From IMG/VR virus record IMGVR_UViG_3300020201_000009, positions 1 through 64,000 of that record: a stretch of DNA of 64,000 nt. One strand, written 5' to 3'. Both the position numbers and the translations under genes were made by a program. This stretch comes from a virus. The notes beneath the pieces are model-generated. The model was given only the letters and a program-made list of their open reading frames with translations, was not told the DNA's origin and made no database searches. Shown here one piece after another: positions 2,439-58,245 of this stretch. Numbering within the stretch: the stretch's first letter is position 1; every line of letters begins with the position of its first letter.

Positions 2439-3371
2439 ATGGCATTTGTTTGTTTGGTGGATAAGACAGAATTTGATGATTTGGATGCCCTGCACTATCA
2501 TCTTAAAGAGCTAAAAGTTTCCCAGAAGACTTACTATCTTCAATATTGCAACAAGAAGGATTTATTAACGGGAGAGACGTTGGAATTTAAGTCTGTCGAA
2601 CAGTATTTAAGCAACGACTTCCAAGACAAGAATAACCTTAAAAAATACCTCAAAACAAACGTCGAAGAGGGAAAAAAATGGTCTCTTAACTGGCTTAAAT
2701 TGAGGAAGGAATCGAAAAATCTTCGGTGGGCTCCCTCGCAGGTTGAATTAAGATCCCTTCCGTGTCCAACAATTCCTTATTTTGATTTTATCGGTGGCTA
2801 TAATAAAATTTGTACTGAAATGGGTATGCAGTTAAAATATACCAACGAAGATTTGGTATTTAAAAAACTCCCAGTTGAGGCAAAGATTATTGTGGATAGT
2901 CGAGAACAAAAACCGCTATCTTTTAATAACTCGGTTATTGAGGCCGTAAACGTTGGCGATTATGCGCTAACAAAACCATATGATAAAAAAATCTACGTAG
3001 AGAGAAAGAGTCTATTGGATTTTATAGGTACGCTTACAAAAGATCTTGGACGCTTCGAAAGAGAAATAGAACGAGCTGTTAAAGATAAGAGCTATATTGT
3101 TATGTTAGTCGAGAACGACATTAATGACTGTTTGGGTTTTACCTTTCTGGCCAAAAAATACATTGGTTTACGATATGTAAAAACCACGCCAGCACATGTA
3201 TTTAAAAATTTGAGAGATTTGCTCCAGAAATATGATAACTTCCAAGTTCTATTCGTCAATGGACGTATCGAAGCGAAAAATGGCGTGATTAAGATTTTTG
3301 AGTTGGGTGAACAAGTAAAGAAGACTGACCTTCAGTTATTCTATGAACTAAAAAAGTTAGTATTATTATAA
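2439..3371 (+). CDS. ERCC4/XPF-Mus81 family nuclease
   Basis: IIVDSREQ...VGDY...VERKSLLDF is the diagnostic ERCC4 motif (VDxRE, GD, ERKxxxD). Confidence 0.8.
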   Translation: MAFVCLVDKTEFDDLDALHYHLKELKVSQKTYYLQYCNKKDLLTGETLEFKSVEQYLSNDFQDKNNLKKYLKTNVEEGKKWSLNWLKLRKESKNLRWAPSQVELRSLPCPTIPYFDFIGGYNKICTEMGMQLKYTNEDLVFKKLPVEAKIIVDSREQKPLSFNNSVIEAVNVGDYALTKPYDKKIYVERKSLLDFIGTLTKDLGRFEREIERAVKDKSYIVMLVENDINDCLGFTFLAKKYIGLRYVKTTPAHVFKNLRDLLQKYDNFQVLFVNGRIEAKNGVIKIFELGEQVKKTDLQLFYELKKLVLL

Positions 3372-3374
3372 ATT

Positions 3375-6300
3375 ATGGCTTGGGACGCAGGAAAAAATCG
3401 TATAAAGAAATGGGAAGATACAAATGAAAAGTTATCGCAACTAGAAGGAGAGTTAACTGATCAGGAGGCTATGGAGACTTTCGCCGAATACTTGTTTGCC
3501 AATCCAAGTATTTGTTTGGAATTATTGGCAAATTTAAAAATTTACCCCCTTCAAGAGCTAATGATAAAGGGATGGATGAGAAATGATTATTCGATGGCAA
3601 TTTGGGGCCGAGGCATGAGTAAATGCATAGACATTAATAGCTCAGTATTAACGAACAAGGGAATTATTCCAATAAAAAATGTGGAAGTTGGCGATAATAT
3701 TTATGCCGAAAAGGGCGTTCAAAAAGTATTAAATAAATGGTTTAATCCAGAAGAAGACGGATTTAAAGTTACGACAAAAAAAGGCTATAGTTTTATCGCA
3801 AAGAAGGGTCATAAATTTAAAATTTACGATCCAGAAACATTTGAAACCAAGTTTATAAATATAGAAGATACTCGTTTAGAGAATCTTATTCCAATAAAAG
3901 TCGGTCCTAATTACTGGGGAAATCAAAGTTTAGATTTTGATAGTAAGGTGAAAGAAAAATTTTTAGTTAATATTGAAAACGATTTAGACTTTTATTATTA
4001 TATTGGACGGCTCTTAGGAGACGATTGTACTACTCACAAAATTGGAATTACATCTCCTGATAAAGAAATGATTGATTTTTTAATAGATTATTACAAGAAG
4101 ATAGCACCAGAAAATAATATTGAACAGTATAAAAAAGTTGATAATGAAACATCCGGCGCATGTATTTCTAACCAAAACCTAACATGTGTTTTAGAGTCTC
4201 TTGGCTTTGATTTATCATTACATTCGGTCTATAAAAAAATTCCCTCTAAACTATTATCTGTTTCGGGTGATAAAATTGCTATGATTCTTCGGGGTCTTTT
4301 CGATACCGGCGGTTACGTTTCATTGATGGAGAAGGAGGAAAAGAAATCTATTAGTTGTCTAATCGGGTATAGTTCTTCTTCTAAAGAAATGGCTAAACAG
4401 GTTCATACATTGTTGCTGAATTTCGGTGTTGTCTCTTCATTCGCTTTGCATTCGTCTGGAGAAAAAAATAAACTGGTAAATGGACAATTCTGCGAAACTC
4501 AAGACGATTATAAGGTGATTATTACTGGGAGTAAATATATAGAAAAATTCAATCAAATTATTGGGTTCGGATTAACCAGAAAACGAGAGAGAGTTGAAAA
4601 ATATTTAGCTCTAAAGAATCCAAAGAGTCTTTATTTTGATAATGTTATACCGAATCTCAGGAAAGCTTTGAAGAAAAAATTTACTCACTGTGGATTTAAA
4701 AAAGAAGAGTTTGAGCTACACGATTCAATGAATCTAGAAAAACTTAAGGAGATTTTTCCATTAATCCCAGAAGGTAAAGAAAAAAATAGCCTTAAAGAGC
4801 TAATAGATAGCGATTTTTATATCGATAAAATTGAATCTATAATACCGTGGAAAACTCAAACTTGTGATATAACAGTAGACAAAGAAGAGTGTTATTGGTC
4901 AGATGGAGCTATTCATCATAATAGCTTCACGGCAGCAGTTTTCTGTCTTTTTTGGTCAGTCTTCAACCCCGATAATCGTATCATTCTAATTTCGTTCGTC
5001 TTTCGTGCGACCAGAAGAATTCTTGAACAAATCGAAAAGTTTGTAAACGCAGATGGGGCTCATAATATTAAAAGTTGTTTTCCTAGCGATTTGCAAAAGA
5101 GAAACGATGAATGGAAATGGGCATTGCCAAATGGGGCTTCTATTGTTTGTTTACCTTTGGGCGATGGAACAAAGATTCGTGGTTTCCGTGCAGATACTCT
5201 CATTATCGATGAGTATAATTACATGAATTCTAATGTTATTACAGAAGTAATTCAACCATTCCTCGTCTCCTCAAATAATGTTTCCTCACAAATGGAAATT
5301 GATCGTATCGAAGACAAACTAGTGGCACAGGGGAAAATAAGAAATGACCAGAGAACAACTTTAGATGAAAATATTAAAGTTATCGCCTTAAGTTCGGCTG
5401 GTTTCCAGTTCGAAGACATGTACAAAAAGTATTCTTATTGGGTGTCCAATATTATGGAAGGAGGTATTACAAAGAGAGACAGTGGCGAAGAGGAGGTGAG
5501 GCTTGGTGTTGGTGAAAATATTTCCTATTTTGTTTCAAGACTCAGTTATGAAGCCGCTCCCAAGGGATTGTTAAATGCAAAAGTTATTGAAGAGGCACGA
5601 CAAGGCGCTAGTCAAAGCGTTTTCGATAGAGAATATAGGGCAATTTTTACAGCAGACTCGGACTCTTACTATTCTGCTAAAAAAATGGTAGAATGCACAA
5701 TCCCAAATGGCCAATCGCCATGTATGGAAATAGAGGGCGATAATGGATCGGAATATATTCTTTCAATCGATCCATCTTTCTCTTCGGCAGAGCACTCTGA
5801 CTATTTTGCAATGGTTATTTTAAAAATCGTCAAGAAAGACGGGAAGAAAATTCCCCTTCTTGTGCATTGTTACGCAGTTGCGGGCGGAAGTCTTAAAGAT
5901 CATACTCTTTATTTATATTTTTTACTTAAAAAATTTAATGTAGTTTATGTAGCTATTGACTCTTCTGGTGGAGATAGTAATGAATTTATTAATTCTTCAA
6001 ATAATTCTAAACTATTTAAAGATAGTAAAATAGAATTATTGGACATACAAGCGGATTTTGCTAAACATGATAATTCTGATCTTATAAAAGAAATTAAAAA
6101 AAGTTATAACTTGCAGCAAAAAAGAATTGTACAAAAACAACATTTCGGCGCTGGTAATTTTTTAAGATCCGCAAATGAATATATGCAAGGTTGCTTTGAT
6201 AGAAAGAATTTAATGTTTGCTGGTAAGATTAATAGTAATGCCAACGAACTTTCCAGAATATCGGGTACCAGTATGGATATACTAAAAGATCATAAATCCT

Positions 6301-6578
6301 TTAAAGATATTGATATCGAGGAATTTATCGAAGACCAAGATAATTGGATAGATGTCACAAAACAAGAATGCGCACTTATAGAAATTAGCACAAGCGCACT
6401 TGGAACAATGTCGTTTGATTTACCATTGTCTTTGCGAAGAAGTAAACAGGCGAATAGAGTGCGTAAGGACTTGTACTCAGCGTTGTTACTGGGAAATTGG
6501 GCGTTCAAACTATATATTGAATGTTTGAATGAGCCCGAGGTAAAGACTTTTGCGACTTTTGCTCCGTTTTTGGGATAA
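3375..6578 (+). CDS. terL: Terminase large subunit, intein-containing
   Basis: Spliced Walker A WGRGMSK/SFT; IRGFRA plus Walker B LIIDEY; RNase H-like nuclease LSIDPS...SDYFA...RKDLYSAL; portal immediately downstream. Confidence 0.85.
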   Translation: MAWDAGKNRIKKWEDTNEKLSQLEGELTDQEAMETFAEYLFANPSICLELLANLKIYPLQELMIKGWMRNDYSMAIWGRGMSKCIDINSSVLTNKGIIPIKNVEVGDNIYAEKGVQKVLNKWFNPEEDGFKVTTKKGYSFIAKKGHKFKIYDPETFETKFINIEDTRLENLIPIKVGPNYWGNQSLDFDSKVKEKFLVNIENDLDFYYYIGRLLGDDCTTHKIGITSPDKEMIDFLIDYYKKIAPENNIEQYKKVDNETSGACISNQNLTCVLESLGFDLSLHSVYKKIPSKLLSVSGDKIAMILRGLFDTGGYVSLMEKEEKKSISCLIGYSSSSKEMAKQVHTLLLNFGVVSSFALHSSGEKNKLVNGQFCETQDDYKVIITGSKYIEKFNQIIGFGLTRKRERVEKYLALKNPKSLYFDNVIPNLRKALKKKFTHCGFKKEEFELHDSMNLEKLKEIFPLIPEGKEKNSLKELIDSDFYIDKIESIIPWKTQTCDITVDKEECYWSDGAIHHNSFTAAVFCLFWSVFNPDNRIILISFVFRATRRILEQIEKFVNADGAHNIKSCFPSDLQKRNDEWKWALPNGASIVCLPLGDGTKIRGFRADTLIIDEYNYMNSNVITEVIQPFLVSSNNVSSQMEIDRIEDKLVAQGKIRNDQRTTLDENIKVIALSSAGFQFEDMYKKYSYWVSNIMEGGITKRDSGEEEVRLGVGENISYFVSRLSYEAAPKGLLNAKVIEEARQGASQSVFDREYRAIFTADSDSYYSAKKMVECTIPNGQSPCMEIEGDNGSEYILSIDPSFSSAEHSDYFAMVILKIVKKDGKKIPLLVHCYAVAGGSLKDHTLYLYFLLKKFNVVYVAIDSSGGDSNEFINSSNNSKLFKDSKIELLDIQADFAKHDNSDLIKEIKKSYNLQQKRIVQKQHFGAGNFLRSANEYMQGCFDRKNLMFAGKINSNANELSRISGTSMDILKDHKSFKDIDIEEFIEDQDNWIDVTKQECALIEISTSALGTMSFDLPLSLRRSKQANRVRKDLYSALLLGNWAFKLYIECLNEPEVKTFATFAPFLG
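3624..4922 (+). mobile_element. Intein (433 aa) with LAGLIDADG-type endonuclease domain inserted in the terminase P-loop
   Basis: Starts CIDINSSVLT; ends TCDITV...GAIHHN followed by Ser+1; internal blocks YYIGRLLGDD and LRGLFDTGG. Confidence 0.9.
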
Positions 6579-12629: not shown

Positions 12630-13487
12630 ATGGCTGGAATAATTTGGGAAGATTGCGAAGATATTAAATTAATAGAGTTAGTTTCTTTAGGGAAATATAC
12701 ATTTCAAGAAATGACAGCTTGGATGTCAAATAGAACAGCAAGTGCTTTACAATCAAGATCCTCTATTTTGGGGCTTCAAAATAACTATCAATGGCATCAA
12801 TATGAATTTGATAAAAATTTCTTCGAGACGCCGAATAATAGAAATTGTTTTTGGGCTGGATGGTTGGCCGCAGACGGCAACTTCGAAAATTATTGCGGGG
12901 AAAGATATGCTCTAAGATGGTCTATACACCAACAAGATATCGAAATGATGGAGTTATTTAAATCGGACATAAAGTTTACTGGGCCAATAACTAAGTTCAC
13001 GAAAAAATTAAAAACGGGGGTGTTATCGCCACATGCGGTTATTCGGATTAATCAGGTGGATATTCAAAAATACCATTTGTATAAATGGGGAATGATCCCA
13101 AATAAGACTTACCGATTACCTCCCTCAATTTTAGAAACATTGGAACTAAAACTGGCTTTTATCGTCGGCTATATTAATGGGGATGGCTGTATAAATTATT
13201 ACAAAAGTAAAAAGGGGAAAGAAAACTTTTGTATTAAATTTACTAATTCGTCGTTGCAAATTCTTCAGTGGATTAAACAGATTGCGGAAGATTTCAACTT
13301 TCCGAAACTTAAAAATAAAAAGAAGCCAATTCGAAAGATCGGCAAAACAAATTGCTATGAAGTAGTCTTTAATGGTTTGGAAGCCGCTTCCCTATTCAAA
13401 CTCTTAAAAACTGTACATGTACCAAGTCTGGCGCGAAAATGGGAAAACCCTGAAATCTTAGAATATATCGAAAGAATTTTAAAATAA
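12630..13487 (+). CDS. Free-standing LAGLIDADG homing endonuclease
   Basis: Two motifs FWAGWLAADG and FIVGYINGDG; typical FDKNFF...N leader and terminal LARKW; N-terminal Myb-like W-E-D segment. Confidence 0.85.
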   Translation: MAGIIWEDCEDIKLIELVSLGKYTFQEMTAWMSNRTASALQSRSSILGLQNNYQWHQYEFDKNFFETPNNRNCFWAGWLAADGNFENYCGERYALRWSIHQQDIEMMELFKSDIKFTGPITKFTKKLKTGVLSPHAVIRINQVDIQKYHLYKWGMIPNKTYRLPPSILETLELKLAFIVGYINGDGCINYYKSKKGKENFCIKFTNSSLQILQWIKQIAEDFNFPKLKNKKKPIRKIGKTNCYEVVFNGLEAASLFKLLKTVHVPSLARKWENPEILEYIERILK

Positions 13488-49766: not shown

Positions 49767-50843
49767 TTAAACACCTCTAATAGCCGAATTATTAGATATA
49801 AGAGTATTGAAAGTATCGGCATAGGTTAAATAGCCAAAAGATCTTTTAGGTCCGGGGGCGGCGAGGGCTTGCTTTAAAACTTCAACAAATTCCTTTTCGT
49901 CCCAATCAAAGAAATTACCCTGATTAAAATCGGCACCGGGATGGAAGAAAATATTATCGTAGGCCGGAAATTTAGCGTTAGGTTTTACGACCCAAGAATT
50001 TTCGTTGTTAAAGTAATCTTTGTAGGCATGAGCATCCAAAGATACGATTTTTTTACCTAAACAAGCAGCTTGATAAACTGGTAAATCTCTACCTTCCCCG
50101 CCCGACATTCCTAAAAATACATCGCAGCTGTTTAGAAAATCATTGTATTCCGCGTTCTTAGGCATCGCTGGCATCGAAGGGAAATTATAAGGTCTGACTC
50201 CATTAAAAGTATGATGGAGAATTTTTGCATTGTCTTCTGGATTGAAGAAAGGATTGTTAACGGCGGCATGGATGGCATATTCCCCATTATTACCAAATTC
50301 TTTTTGAAGAACCCGAAGAATCTTTTGGGTTCTTTTGCGATTCTCAAATTTCCCCCCTAATCCGATAACCTTGACATCTTTTGGATATTTTCTACTGTTG
50401 ACTTCTTTAAAGTTATGAGTGTCAAAACCTAATTCTAAAAATACTACGTTCTTTAAACCATAAGATTCGAATACTTCCTTAGTGAAACTAGAAGTCACCC
50501 AAACCACGCTTTGCTGGGATAAAATATTGACCTCAGTCGGAGTCAGGGTATCGGTTTCATGGAAGGTGATTAGCTCTTGGTTGTTAGAAAACGATTCTAG
50601 GGAACCATTGATATGCCAAAGCTTGATTGTTCGAAAGGCACGAGAGTGATTCTTCATGTGACTCGTAATCTTGCTATTCACCCATTTTTCAAATTCCTGA
50701 TCTGGAACTTGAGCTGCCATTGATACGTTACCAATAGGAATAATTGTACAATCTAAATTTTTCTTATAAGCTTCACGTAGTAAAGCGATTGATGTTTGAC
50801 CCAGACTTAAGTCGTTAATTGGGAAGTGGAAAGTGACTGGCAT
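49767..50843 (-). CDS. Glycosyltransferase, GT-B / GT4-like
   Basis: GKFENRK, FLNSCDVFLGMSGGEGRDLPVYQAACLGK. Confidence 0.8.
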   Translation of the reverse strand: MPVTFHFPINDLSLGQTSIALLREAYKKNLDCTIIPIGNVSMAAQVPDQEFEKWVNSKITSHMKNHSRAFRTIKLWHINGSLESFSNNQELITFHETDTLTPTEVNILSQQSVVWVTSSFTKEVFESYGLKNVVFLELGFDTHNFKEVNSRKYPKDVKVIGLGGKFENRKRTQKILRVLQKEFGNNGEYAIHAAVNNPFFNPEDNAKILHHTFNGVRPYNFPSMPAMPKNAEYNDFLNSCDVFLGMSGGEGRDLPVYQAACLGKKIVSLDAHAYKDYFNNENSWVVKPNAKFPAYDNIFFHPGADFNQGNFFDWDEKEFVEVLKQALAAPGPKRSFGYLTYADTFNTLISNNSAIRGV

Positions 50844-51400
50844 TAAATTTCATTATGAATTTTTTCTTCTATTTTCTTTAGGTTGCGTATGTATATCATT
50901 CTCGCCCCTTGTTTTGTAATATTATAAAGTTTGGCAATTTCTGGCCAAGTTGTTTTTTTGAGACTACAATGTCTTAGTTCAAATATTTCTTGGAACCTTT
51001 TGTCATCTATATTATGAAATTCAGATTGAATGTAATCAATTAATTGTTTATCGTTACAGGTTTCTTTATCCGATAAATTTTCCAATCCAGAATCTTCAAC
51101 TTGTATAATACCTTCGTTATCATGAAGTAGTCTCTGGCATTGCCAACGAATATTTTGTCCAATCCAACTAGAAAATTTCATTTTCCGATCTGGATTGTAG
51201 TTCATTGCATAATTGTAAATATTATACATTTTATGTTCAAGTAACTCGTCTCGTTCAATTTTAGGAACGTAAGTATATTGATTTACGATATTTACATAAA
51301 TACCGGTATGACGATTTACTAATTCTAAAAGAGACGCGGAATCTTGTTTAGATTTAATCTCTTGAATCAATTGATGATCATTAACTTCGGCTGGAAGCAT
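50843..51400 (-). CDS. Sigma-70/ECF-like sigma factor
   Basis: DHQLIQEIK, YNPDRKMKFSSWIG (region 2), IFELRH...TWPEIAKLYNITKQGARMI (region 4 HTH). Confidence 0.75.
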   Translation of the reverse strand: MLPAEVNDHQLIQEIKSKQDSASLLELVNRHTGIYVNIVNQYTYVPKIERDELLEHKMYNIYNYAMNYNPDRKMKFSSWIGQNIRWQCQRLLHDNEGIIQVEDSGLENLSDKETCNDKQLIDYIQSEFHNIDDKRFQEIFELRHCSLKKTTWPEIAKLYNITKQGARMIYIRNLKKIEEKIHNEI

Positions 51401-51671: not shown

Positions 51672-52109
51672 TTATTCATCGCCTTCTGGACTACCATCGG
51701 ACAAGCTTTGGTTTTGTAATAAATTATTAATCACAATACACAAAAACTGAATATCCTTATCTTGGATAGACATTTTATTGGTCATAATCGATCCATCTTC
51801 TAGTTCTCCTGAATAAGCGTTTACGATCTCCGCGACCGCATTTGCGGTTATCATAGAAATTTTCACGTTTTGACCCTCGGAGAAGATTGGATTGCTTAGG
51901 ACATAAATTGCCTTATCGCCATCAACTCCTAAGATTGCTTGACAGAAGTTAGACTCTTTTAGTTCTGACATTGCGAGTTTAACTAGTTCTAGTTTAATGT
52001 GTTCTTGTGGTTTACTAACAAGAACCTTCTTTAAATCTGTTGGTATTACAAATGTGTCGCAATCGATAAAATGTGCGACAATTTGGTTTCTAATTTCTAA
52101 TAGAGTCAT
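51672..52109 (-). CDS. Hypothetical protein
   Basis: 145-aa first gene of the leftward operon. Confidence 0.6.
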   Translation of the reverse strand: MTLLEIRNQIVAHFIDCDTFVIPTDLKKVLVSKPQEHIKLELVKLAMSELKESNFCQAILGVDGDKAIYVLSNPIFSEGQNVKISMITANAVAEIVNAYSGELEDGSIMTNKMSIQDKDIQFLCIVINNLLQNQSLSDGSPEGDE

Positions 52110-52118
52110 TTACGCTTT

Positions 52119-52148
52119 ATACTATTCAATTGTAAGTATAAGTCAACA
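52119..52148 (-). promoter_or_regulatory. Sigma70-type promoter for the leftward operon
   Basis: Minus strand tgTTGACT-N16-TAGTAT just upstream of ATG 52109. Confidence 0.55.
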
Positions 52149-52331
52149 TTTTTTTTTTGTTAAAAGTGCATAGTAGTCCTATGTGGCGCAGACACAAAGA
52201 CTTATAAAGTTTATAGAACTCATAAACAGTTTAAAACACTTGGGGAAACTTTAAGTAAGATCTTAAAACACCAAATATTAGACGAAAAAGTCATTTTGCG
52301 GCAAGTGAAGAACTTACTACCGATAAACTTT

Positions 52332-52601
52332 AAACAACTCTTCGGAGCCATTCGTCCAGCCCTGCGGTCTGAACTCATGGAACCTTCGGTTCATTGAAAG
52401 GCAATTTACATTTGCCATTCATTGTACAGTTTCTAAGTTGTACATTTTCCTTTTACTCACCATTTAGAAAACATACAGTTATTAACTGTAAAGTCTAATA
52501 ATGTACAAGTCTAAAACGGTAGAGGAAACTAGAAGAAAAATGCCTTTATAATGAACCGAAGGTTCACAACGATTCTTTACTTTAGTAAAGATGAGTTGTT
52601 T
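52332..52601. repeat. Nested inverted-repeat element (candidate replication origin or structured RNA)
   Basis: Inverted-repeat pairs 52332-40/52593-601 (9 bp), 52380-95/52550-65 (16 bp) and 52438-46/52500-08 (9 bp); central hairpin 52474-90. Confidence 0.75.
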
Positions 52602-52749
52602 GATTGGAAAACTTTACGGAATCTCGGACTTTACATTAGAATCTTTAGACTTACTAGACTCGCGTTGCTTCTCTAAGAATACTACCGTAAGAGATTTTTA
52701 ACAAACGCACTTTACAGAAAGGAAGATTAAAAGATTCTTTCTTTTTCAA

Positions 52750-53357
52750 TAAGAGCACCGCCCGCAGGGTGGGGCTCGTTCTGCCCCGAAGGGCCATAAC
52801 CCCCCAATGGAGCCCTTTTACATCACTTTGATTGACTCAAAAAGTGCGTATTATCGGTTATTCTAACCTACCCAACGTGTGATTAACTACCGGGCCACAA
52901 TTATAGTCAAGGCATTGTCATGCTCAGGGTGATCCCGCTTTTCATCTATTCAAATTCTTTTAGGTTTCAACCGTTATGTCGTTCAGCATTTCTCATAATC
53001 CGACTCGATAACCTGTTTTGACAGATCGGGACTACAAGGCCAAACACGTATCTAACCCGAATGTGAGGGTGTTTTATCACATTCTGTATGAGAATCTTAC
53101 TAATCCGCCCCGAGTTAATTCTCGGTTTCCACGTCCCAAAGGGCTCCTGAAGGGTCTCGTGCATAGTATTTCTACGTTTAAAGTAACGCATTAAGTTTTC
53201 AACCCCAATGGCCGTCACATCTTGACGGTAGTTTGACTGTCACGCTTAAACTTGTGAAGGACTTTCAAAAGTTATCTGGCCCTCGCGCAGGGCTCTAATT
53301 ATAAAGTATTATGTTAGTTTACGCCAAAAAAGGTTAATTTTATCTCAGGCGCTCTTA
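52750..53357 (-). ncRNA. Candidate large structured non-coding RNA (~608 nt)
   Basis: 10-bp closing stem UAAGAGCGCC/GGUGCUCUUA, nested 10-bp and 8-bp long-range helices, many hairpins including a cUUCGg loop; promoter immediately upstream. Confidence 0.65.
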
Positions 53358-53366
53358 ACTTTCACT

Positions 53367-53396
53367 ATAATACACATAATTTTTTGAAAGTCAACA
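53367..53396 (-). promoter_or_regulatory. Promoter for the candidate ncRNA (sigma70-type with overlapping GTGTA)
   Basis: Minus strand tgTTGACT-N16-TATTAT; GTGTA at 53375-53371; predicted start about 53360. Confidence 0.6.
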
Positions 53397-53507
53397 CAGT
53401 TTGCGTTAAAACTTTTTCGAAAAACCGAATCCATAAAAAAGTTTGCATCTAAAACATGTTGACTTTTGCCGCGTTTTAAGGGAAAATCCCTTTTAAGAAC
53501 AAATAAA

Positions 53508-54404
53508 ATGAAAATTTTCTCGGATGGGGCAGACTGCCCTCAGTGTCAAAGATGGAGAATCGAACGGGGTTTCAAGAAACTCGGCCATCAAATAGTTCTT
53601 GATATCAGTAAAGCCGATTTGATATATATTAATAATCCTTGGTATGATTCTATATATAAAGTTAATATATTAAAAAATAAAGTTAAAATCATTTTAAACA
53701 TTTTAGATTTGGCCCCGCATCTTGGAGATGATTTTCCACTAGAAAAGTTAAAGAAGTGTTTAAAAATGTCAGATGCTGTTACATGTATATCTGAAACAGT
53801 CAGAGACGATTGCACGGAAAGACTTAACATAACACCCCATGTTATTTACAATCCAATCATGGATGTTTTTTTACAAAAAAATCCCAAACCAAGAAAATTT
53901 AGAGCCCTTGCATCGGGAAGATTGCTTGACCCCAATAAGAGATCGCATTTGGGACTAATGGCATTGCAGGTACTCGGCGTAAAATCAGAAGAAATCGCAA
54001 TTTGCGGCTCAGAATATCCCGGATATGGAGAAAATTTGGGCATCGTAGGGGTAGACACTTTAAGAGAATTGTATAACGAAGTCGATTTTGTTTTGGTCAC
54101 TTCCCGACATGAGGGCTTGGGCTTACAGGTTCCCGAGGCGATGGCGGCGGGGGCTATCCCGGTTATATGTAATGATCTTTCTACGAAGCAGGAATTTTTA
54201 CCATCTATTTATTTTCCAGAGTACGACGAAGTTTACCCAAATGTAATATCTTTGGTTCATTTCATTTCTCGGTATATGGGTAGTCAAGAAAATATGTTGG
54301 ATTTCAAATCTAGGATTTATACCTATTACAATGCCAAATTGGCACATAAATTTAGTGATATCGGTGTTGCCAAATCAATTCTAGACATTTATTATAAACT
54401 ATAA
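53508..54404 (+). CDS. Glycosyltransferase, GT4-like (likely start ATG 53508 rather than TTG 53466)
   Basis: GRLLDPNKR, LRELYNEVDFVLVTSRHEGLGLQVPEAMAAGAIPV. Confidence 0.85.
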   Translation: MKIFSDGADCPQCQRWRIERGFKKLGHQIVLDISKADLIYINNPWYDSIYKVNILKNKVKIILNILDLAPHLGDDFPLEKLKKCLKMSDAVTCISETVRDDCTERLNITPHVIYNPIMDVFLQKNPKPRKFRALASGRLLDPNKRSHLGLMALQVLGVKSEEIAICGSEYPGYGENLGIVGVDTLRELYNEVDFVLVTSRHEGLGLQVPEAMAAGAIPVICNDLSTKQEFLPSIYFPEYDEVYPNVISLVHFISRYMGSQENMLDFKSRIYTYYNAKLAHKFSDIGVAKSILDIYYKL

Positions 54405-56892: not shown

Positions 56893-58245
56893 AGGGCGAG
56901 GCTTGTAATACATAAAGTCCCAATTACTTGGAACTTAACGGTTTATATACGTTTGGCTTGTTGACAGAAGCCTGCCCGTCGAGTCCCGTAACCGCTAGGT
57001 CACTGAACGAAACAGGGAGTTTGGAACGACCGGCTATATTGATCGCCGCATTTACATCTGCGTCCAATACAGTTCCGTCCTTGCAGTAGTATCTACTGCC
57101 TTTTCTTTGACCATCCATCAATCCGGTTCTTGAGTCAATTTGACTCGTAAACCGAGGATTGATTAGCCTAACCGTTTTCCCGTATATGGGTGCCTTGTAT
57201 GTCAAAATTCTTTTGAGTTCCGCAAACGGAACTTGGCCGATCTTATTGTTGTTAGACCGACTCATCTTTTTCTTTTTCGTCTTGGCGTTCTTCAATCCCG
57301 TCAGGTCTTCCAATACCAGCGTATTTCCTTTTGTGTTTCTAATCAGCAGATTAGCTAGGACATGAGACTGATTTCTGTTCTTGTTCGCCTCTTTATGCCG
57401 AATCTTAAACAAGTGGCGTTTTGCCGACTTGGTTCCCTTTGCTTGCAGTTGTCTTTTCAGAAACCTTAACTTTCTTTTGTCCTTATTGAACTTCTTGTCG
57501 ATATAAATTTGTCCTTCGGAAGTAGCGATGGCCCGATTTACTCCGAGATCAATACCGGTCGCCAATTTATTTAATGGTTCGGGCTTGACGTTTACTTCAA
57601 ACGTAAAGGCTATCCAAATCTTGTCGTTCCGAAAGAAAAGCAAAGGGTCGCAGAATTCATACTCGGCCAACAAACCGTCCAATTTCGCGTAACGCTTGAA
57701 GTCTACAGTCACTCTTTTCTCTAACGAAGTCAGCAGTATTTTTCCCTTCTTGTAGGTGTAAATGCGCTTATCCAAGCGCATCGAAAGATTCTTCTTGTTG
57801 ATCGGACCTACAATTCTGTGTTTATTGCTTTTGACAGAGCGATACGAAGACAGACATTCAGCCTGCGCTCTTATCACTATTTGCGATGGAATTCCCGGAT
57901 TTTTGTCGCGAAATTGCCGGTAAAACTTAGCGTGAAGCTCAATCACGGAGTTTTTTCTCTTACTTCCGTCGCCATAGTGTATGACACTGGCCTCGTTAAA
58001 AGCCGACCGTTCGGCCTTTAAAACGGCAAGGATTTTTTCAAAGTCCGCTTGACTTTGAAACAAAACCTCCGTATTGTATGTTAAGTGAGTCACTTCACTG
58101 AAATATACACGCATTCTTCAACTCTTTTATACAAAAATCTTTCAATCTGTGATAAATAACTTATCTTGCTATTCCGCGAATACCGCCAAACCGGCGAGGC
58201 TTCCTCCCGGTCCTAAAGGACCGGGTTTCCGCCCCATCCCCTGAG
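56874..58245 (-). mobile_element. Non-autonomous IS200/IS605-family (IS1341-type, tnpB-only) element, 1372 bp
   Basis: Right end ...GCCTCGCCCTTTAGGGCGGGGTAGTTGAC; left-end hairpin CCCGGTCCTTTAGGACCGGG; removing the element restores ATT-AAA-TGA overlapping the next ATG. Confidence 0.85.
56924..58114 (-). CDS. tnpB: TnpB RNA-guided endonuclease
   Basis: RuvC-I GIDLG, RuvC-II LVLEDL, RuvC-III DADVNAAINI; YKA...INPRFTSQ. Confidence 0.9.
   Translation of the reverse strand: MRVYFSEVTHLTYNTEVLFQSQADFEKILAVLKAERSAFNEASVIHYGDGSKRKNSVIELHAKFYRQFRDKNPGIPSQIVIRAQAECLSSYRSVKSNKHRIVGPINKKNLSMRLDKRIYTYKKGKILLTSLEKRVTVDFKRYAKLDGLLAEYEFCDPLLFFRNDKIWIAFTFEVNVKPEPLNKLATGIDLGVNRAIATSEGQIYIDKKFNKDKRKLRFLKRQLQAKGTKSAKRHLFKIRHKEANKNRNQSHVLANLLIRNTKGNTLVLEDLTGLKNAKTKKKKMSRSNNNKIGQVPFAELKRILTYKAPIYGKTVRLINPRFTSQIDSRTGLMDGQRKGSRYYCKDGTVLDADVNAAINIAGRSKLPVSFSDLAVTGLDGQASVNKPNVYKPLSSK

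Follow-up and report, generated by a model that had tools for sequence, protein, structure and literature searches.

A probable new large noncoding RNA, without known family or found homologs, in a gene-free gap of a phage genome

What occupies a long stretch of phage DNA in which no gene can be found? The question is raised by the window analyzed here, which comprises bases 1 to 64000 of a virus record that is 145,870 bases long, about 92% complete, and 37.5% in GC content. At a point where gene directions diverge lies a 1.36-kb gene-free gap, bordered by the gene for a 145-aa protein, running leftward from 52109, and by a gene for a family-4 glycosyltransferase, running rightward from about 53508. 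An earlier note, made from the letters of the sequence, had proposed that this gap holds a large structured RNA with its own promoter. The evidence supports a promoter-driven, noncoding, strand-specifically folded element, probably a new large phage noncoding RNA without known family or found homologs, as far as sequence can tell. Its features are collected in Table 1.

Table 1. Positions of the candidate RNA, its predicted structural elements, its neighbors, and the RNA-like family found in the same gap of related phages
Feature	Position	Strand	Basis
Candidate large noncoding RNA, ~610 nt; core ~53293-52783	52750-53360	-	Folding, codon scores, promoter
Sigma-70-type promoter TTGACT-N16-TATTAT, 10/12 consensus, with overlapping GTGTA at 53375-53371; predicted start ~53360	53367-53394	-	
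Second promoter-like site, 10/12 consensus; start ~53291, just ahead of the robust core	53298-53327	-	
Central 19-bp long-range helix, 5' strand; pairs with 52818-52798, p 0.97-0.98 in all contexts	53138-53156	-	
Central long-range helix, 3' strand; includes six-G run	52798-52818	-	
Outer helix, 3' strand; partner 53357-53348 or alternatively ~53301-53292; context dependent	52750-52759	-	
Strand-swap segment near the 5' end; local hairpin while the transcript is short, later pairs with 52796-52783	53277-53293	-	Prediction
Strand-swap segment near the 3' end; forms the UUCG hairpin or pairs with 53293-53277	52783-52796	-	Prediction
Long nested stem with T-loop-like UUGAA at its tip (53202); the local domain that folds best, z -6.3 in a 150-nt window	53158-53244	-	
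A-rich, weakly paired inner region (~130 nt) with T-loop-like motif at 52970 and possible pseudoknot partners	52860-52995	-	
Imperfect hairpin directly after the RNA; U tail on plus strand only	52716-52746		
Separate palindrome; inverted repeats nested in one another; perfect C-GAA-G mini-hairpins, one on each strand (52557 +, 52388 -)	52332-52600		
Divergent family-4 glycosyltransferase gene bounding the gap	53508-54404	+	Gene annotation
Conserved 145-aa gene, N-terminal winged-helix fold; own promoter 52146-52119; gap marker in many relatives	51672-52109	-	
~420-nt family member	L018:3211-3624	+	
~420-nt family member	L065:4999-5420	-	
~420-nt family member	L068:4778-5182	+	
~420-nt family member	L069:5499-5904	+	
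~420-nt family member	L237:~2796-3333	-	
~420-nt family, first motif	L010:2024		

Might the gap simply encode proteins? All of its open reading frames (ORFs) of at least 30 aa have negative codon scores, against +0.02 to +0.21 for real genes, with the caveat that one real hydrophobic neighbor gene is also negative. A gene caller placed no gene in the gap of an identical contig from a JGI metagenome, and the 83-aa ORF of the gap has no Pfam or phage match. The statement that no credible ORF is present thus holds. The segment is also elevated in GC content, as had been noted, at 44% compared with 33% and 28% in its flanks and 37.5% in the genome, with abrupt boundaries at both ends; some nearby genes equal it at 44%.

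What would drive transcription of this segment? The minus-strand promoter with an overlapping GTGTA word that the earlier note had read at its right end is indeed there, one of 16 such matches in 3 kb, where 8.9 would be expected. Its proposed dual nature, host type and phage late, is supported by the distribution of the GTGTA word, which occurs in the 90 nt ahead of 14 of the 38 ORFs in the first 49.5 kb, the structural and late region (1.6 expected; Poisson P of 3e-9), and upstream of 6 of the 109 ORFs outside it. The phage also encodes a sigma-70-like factor, in a gene at 50843-51400, 1.4 kb away. On this distribution, GTGTA is probably the late promoter for that factor, and given both the enrichment and the encoded factor, an early plus a late promoter is a fair inference. 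In most relatives (L008, L010, L018, L063, L068, L070, and L241), a promoter-like site occupies the corresponding end of the gap, accompanied by GTGTA in L068 and L241. The second promoter-like site in the window, judged by its sequence, could give rise to a shorter RNA of about 545 nt.

Folding energies were compared with those of shuffled controls, a check that the earlier note had proposed. The minus strand folds to -184 kcal/mol, better than any shuffle (z of -4.1 with 20 shuffles and -3.6 with 60), and the plus strand to -160 kcal/mol, with a z of -2.1. The minus-strand fold contains 22 G-U among its 166 pairs, and its unpaired regions are A-rich. Among control windows elsewhere in the genome, 3 of 16 reach a z of about -3.5 or lower, a rough figure based on 6 shuffles each. 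Perfect helices are no more numerous than chance allows: four helices of at least 8 bp occur in 21% of shuffles, and one of 10 bp occurs in 15%. A 10-bp helix closing the ends appeared in 2 of 2000 shuffles, to be read with the caveat that the 3' end was chosen post hoc. As for the sequence word said to be repeated, one 9-mer does occur twice in the 611 nt, at about the chance level (simple arithmetic predicts about 0.7).

What shape would the RNA take? Every helix named in the earlier note exists as complementary sequence, and its inner long-range helix is robust, while its closing helix and several of its hairpins are less favored; the complete model proposed there lies 6 kcal/mol above the optimum. 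Two long-range helices, 53156-53138/52818-52798 and 53284-53277/52796-52789, are stable in every context tested. The first takes in the previously described 53147-53138/52818-52809. The second, which is new, has 8 bp and a pairing probability of 0.88 to 0.94; the hairpins at 53293-53279 and at 52794-52783 (the UUCG hairpin) have the necessary complementary sequence, but both exclude this more probable helix. Helix 53094-53087/52997-52990 likewise has its complementary strands, but a pairing probability of 0.13. The closing helix 53357-53348/52759-52750 reaches 0.78 in the trimmed RNA, but falls to between 0 and 0.6 when 10 to 95 nt of 3' flank are included. The competing pairs amount to a predicted strand swap, in which the 5' segment forms a hairpin in short transcripts and gives it up for pairing with the 3' segment once the transcript reaches about 585 nt; the predicted difference between these states is 4.3 kcal/mol. 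UUCG, GAAA, and three T-loop-like motifs are also present. Terminator prediction gives no intrinsic terminator for the RNA strand, so the 3' end would probably come from processing. Both ends are uncertain, and the RNA would be roughly 500 to 610 nt long.

Does the same RNA occur elsewhere? Blastn against phages gave no match to it. Blastn against plasmids returned three weak matches, of which the one in Enterococcus lies inside a 206-aa ORF without an Rfam family and is therefore put down to chance. DNA-pattern scans of viral contigs and bacterial genomes gave chance matches only, mostly in coding sequence. The phage itself has no close relative among GenBank phages. None of 13 metagenome loci reached via the flanking glycosyltransferase has the candidate RNA. 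Related loci were also fetched through three flanking proteins; across 46 related virus records and 27 loci, blastn, a sequence-only model, and a model of the 5' domain's structure found the candidate itself and nothing more. In L005, the closest relative with a complete gap, the flanking proteins are 62 to 72% identical and the gap sequence is unrelated. Since most related records are fragmentary and single-sequence models are weak, absence from the relatives is not established. Two further leads were dropped: short words that the candidate shares with the gaps of L063, L070, and L018 are not colinear, with local alignments at shuffle level, and the one outlier, L018 on the opposite strand (z of 5.7 in a set of 28 comparisons), received no confirmation from nhmmer or blastn.

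What, then, fills the same gap in related phages? The arrangement of glycosyltransferase, gap of 0.6 to 1.6 kb, and 145-aa gene recurs in many of them. In L018, L065, L068, L069, and L237, the gap holds a distinct element of about 420 nt, which lies inverted in L065 and has a T-arm-like word and a hairpin in its opening part. In the consensus of this family, 26 of 46 pairs have changed on both sides, a count reached in none of 500 shuffles and far above slid controls; it comes from four sequences (L018, L065, L068, and L069), two of them nearly identical, with the structure taken from the same alignment. An Rfam scan of seven relatives' gap loci, L018 included, gave no match. This undescribed family is better supported as RNA than the window's own candidate. 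The two share the slot, the kind of promoter, a similar size class, and the lack of an Rfam match, but the T-arm-like opening word is absent from the candidate RNA. A profile and a covariance model built on the four sequences give the candidate a best score of 8.4 bits, in fragments, which is no detection. Structured RNAs in the same slot make an RNA in the window more likely, but they are no proof of it.

Folding of the relatives' gaps varies. On the sense strand, z is -5.5 in L070, -4.9 in L068, and -3.3 in L241, and the gaps of L063, L008, L011, and even the family member L018 fold no better than shuffles. Several gaps contain gene-free, promoter-led stretches that are mutually unrelated (L070:4260-5000 [+], L241:1-700 [-], L235:1840-3020, and L063:5000-5320 [+]). 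In the L241 gap, R and S words like those of group I introns stand in normal order, and in L235 the antisense strand folds better. A freshwater subclade conserves a further stretch of about 800 nt without long ORFs (L142:1940-2760), 80 to 94% identical across records, with matching gaps in L095, L099, L102, L107, L127, L134, and L145. It may hold small genes or another RNA.

How is the window's element best understood? That it is a real RNA of some kind is likely. To regard it more specifically as a stand-alone, lineage-specific large noncoding RNA, acting in trans like ROOL and GOLLD without belonging to either, is a tentative step, taken by analogy and given slightly less than an even chance. 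The points that count for it are 3-fold. (i) A promoter lies directly ahead, its position is kept in relatives, and GTGTA is enriched. (ii) Folding is strand asymmetric, with two context-stable long-range helices and UUCG, GAAA, and T-loop-like motifs. (iii) A covarying family of about 420 nt occupies the same gap in relatives. Moreover, the winged-helix gene has its own promoter, so the candidate RNA is not needed as its leader. Against it count the failure of every search to find a homolog and its absence from L005, the control windows with equal z and the chance-level helix counts, the relatives' gaps that fold like shuffles, and the distant tRNA cluster.

The comparison with the large phage RNAs is instructive. 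ROOL and GOLLD are phage-borne, both form RNA-only cages, and ROOL averages 581 nt (PMC5737381, PMC12286853). ROOL, phage-borne and about 580 nt long, with a multi-junction fold, few conserved nucleotides, and a function yet to be found (PMC5737381, PMC12286853), is the kind of RNA that the candidate would resemble. The candidate differs in lacking even a weak model match, and any pseudoknots or cage of its own would be putative. It would be like GOLLD, a large phage RNA expressed during lysis, in that its late-promoter word predicts late expression; typical GOLLD RNAs are longer, many of them over 800 nt. Both classes also tend to adjoin tRNA genes, whereas the candidate is far from the tRNA cluster of its genome (Arg, Glu, Gln, Lys, and a weaker Leu), which ARAGORN places at 112 to 117 kb together with further noncoding gaps; ARAGORN finds no tRNA gene within the 64-kb window. 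Candidate structured RNAs from IMG/VR were catalogued by Fremin et al. (2023), with motifs of 29 to 151 nt and at least three homologs required (PMC10690425). Compared by description, those motifs are phage intergenic, structured, and without function, like the candidate RNA (PMC10690425).

Membership in GOLLD, ROOL, or RNase P, which the earlier note had left to be checked, is not supported: neither Rfam nor whole-genome model runs gave a match at the locus. An Rfam scan of the window at the gathering cutoff placed no family at the candidate RNA, and at an E value of 10 on 52100-53500 the only matches were chance ones of the miRNA type, on the downstream palindrome. The ROOL model (RF03087) gave no match at the gathering cutoff or at E 10, a test in which the control genomes hold no ROOL. 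The GOLLD model (RF02032) had no match at the locus, and its best score in the genome was at chance level (5 bits, E of 6, at 141 kb).

How might a stand-alone RNA of this kind operate? We infer its transcription, ends, fold, refolding, trans action, and assembly as follows. Host RNA polymerase would transcribe it early from the sigma-70-type promoter, and the phage sigma factor encoded at 50843-51400 would do so late from the GTGTA word. Local hairpins would form first and then swap into long-range helices that join the ends, the 3' end being made by processing. The accumulated RNA would serve as a trans-acting scaffold that most likely assembles with itself or binds a partner, in the manner of ROOL and GOLLD, and would be one of several unrelated structured RNAs that the phages of this clade have placed in the gap. 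A bolder version, which we rate as rather doubtful, sees the gap, between the glycosyltransferase cluster and the winged-helix gene, as the clade's exchangeable RNA slot, in which unrelated large RNAs, all of them foreign to Rfam, take turns behind a shared early/late promoter beside an origin-like palindrome; the window's RNA would found a new class, and its strand swap would make assembly, or the activation of an origin, depend on a finished transcript.

The palindrome between the candidate RNA and the 145-aa gene raises another question: could the transcript serve DNA replication? The palindrome folds on both strands (z of -7.1 and -6.8) and contains two of the genome's five C-GAA-G triloop hairpins. 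Gaps of the relatives hold 31 GNA triloop hairpins in about 14 kb, compared with 0 to 0.6 per kb in their flanks. For the core of the palindrome (52380-52565, 186 nt), a rod of 6S size that opens into a bubble at its center is another possible drawing, and Rfam's 6S model does not match it. The 145-aa protein is predicted with a pLDDT of 94 to have an N-terminal winged helix and a helical C-terminal part. A wider structure search identifies a generic winged helix (Z of 8.7), a match that shows no function; Foldseek alone gave no significant match, the protein belongs to no Pfam family, and it occurs clade-wide, with 207 relatives at 50% clustering. Palindrome, triloop hairpins, and winged-helix protein together suggest an origin, as far as sequence features can.

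ColE1 RNA II and the T4 origin transcripts are primer precursors or R-loop formers, and RNA II is similar in length to the candidate RNA. That the folded RNA is itself such a primer precursor or R-loop former, opening the palindrome at 52332-52600 while the winged-helix protein binds the origin, is unlikely, though it shares with those transcripts a long, promoter-driven, noncoding character, a G run, and a course aimed at a hairpin-rich, origin-like element. No terminator stands between RNA and palindrome, the strand is purine and G rich with six Gs in a row near its 3' end, the palindrome folds on both strands and has GNA triloop hairpins of a DNA type, which are enriched in relatives' gaps, and the order of promoter, long noncoding stretch, and winged-helix gene recurs in the clade. 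The lineage-specific sequence would then reflect fast origin divergence. However, the candidate has no sequence or family match to those transcripts, its neighbor is a putative origin, and its ends are paired by long-range helices, which suits a free RNA. Base pairing is predicted for the G run (p of 0.97), the covarying family in L065 is oppositely oriented, and a late promoter would be less expected for an origin primer. GC skew does change at the gap but follows gene direction, and skew at four-fold sites, a test with inconsistent results, gives no clean switch.

Perhaps there is no RNA at all. The segment might act at the level of DNA, as a control region or an origin, or be what is left of an insertion, with GC content and chance complementarity mimicking a fold. 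This would fit the lack of conservation in any relative, helix counts within chance, similar z values in other windows of the genome, and an outer helix that is unstable in context, and the promoter could serve genes further left. The strand asymmetry, however, is marked and comes from G-U pairs, GC boundaries are abrupt at both ends, no frame has a coding signal, the next gene has its own promoter, and a covarying RNA is kept in the same gap of relatives; a DNA-only element is not a likely explanation.

Is the element instead a very diverged or rearranged form of a known ribozyme, a group I or II intron or an RNase P RNA that has become a gene of its own? This is improbable. The isolated words GAAAGUCC and AUAGAUGA, which we take to recall RNase P, speak for it, but the RNase P patterns CR I and CR V (P4) are absent from the candidate RNA, and the type A model (RF00010) is silent on the whole genome while exceeding its cutoff in 8 controls. 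UAGUCC and a complementary GACUA could form an 8-bp helix like group I P7, but its predicted probability is 0.01, the S-like word precedes the R-like word, the reverse of the usual order, and no Rfam group I match appears even at E 10; a permuted group I form is possible. A group II intron, circularly permuted forms included, was likewise rejected, with no Rfam match, no domain V hairpin with the AGC triad, and no 5' GUGYG. ARAGORN, relaxed threshold included, detects no tRNA or tmRNA at the locus, and no canonical T arm is present. Pattern tests for the hallmarks of a tRNA core and of the 23S GTPase center were negative or gave the wrong order, and words resembling 16S and 23S rRNA are no longer than chance would give and find no support in Rfam.

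Finally, a long 5' leader or attenuator for the genes on the left, which encode the winged-helix protein, a membrane protein, and the sigma factor, with the strand swap as its switch, is very improbable: the RNA does lie upstream of that operon on the same strand and has two alternative folds 4.3 kcal/mol apart, but 640 nt and the palindromic element intervene, the winged-helix gene has its own promoter in relatives as well, and the swap is coupled to no terminator.

Why would a stand-alone RNA at this locus matter? Large, elaborately folded RNAs of bacteria and phages are rare, and the three solved orphan classes form unexpected RNA-only assemblies whose functions are open. A further unrelated example of 600 nt would widen this set. 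A single locus with several nonhomologous structured RNAs also invites comparative tests: are these RNAs replacements for one another, and do they have a role in replication at the palindrome nearby? For now the value is limited, the candidate RNA being a singleton from an uncultured phage.

Some other features of the window deserve mention. An unusually large cluster of glycosyltransferase and sugar-nucleotide genes (42900-63500) extends on both sides of the gap and is conserved in the clade. Inserted against the direction of its glycosyltransferase genes is a gene for a TnpB-family RNA-guided nuclease (56924-58114, minus strand), with no adjacent transposase among the listed ORFs. Elsewhere, residues 200 to 520, approximately, of a 1067-aa gene product (3375-6578, plus strand) match intein-containing families, and a free-standing endonuclease gene (12630-13487, plus strand) lies in the head-gene region.
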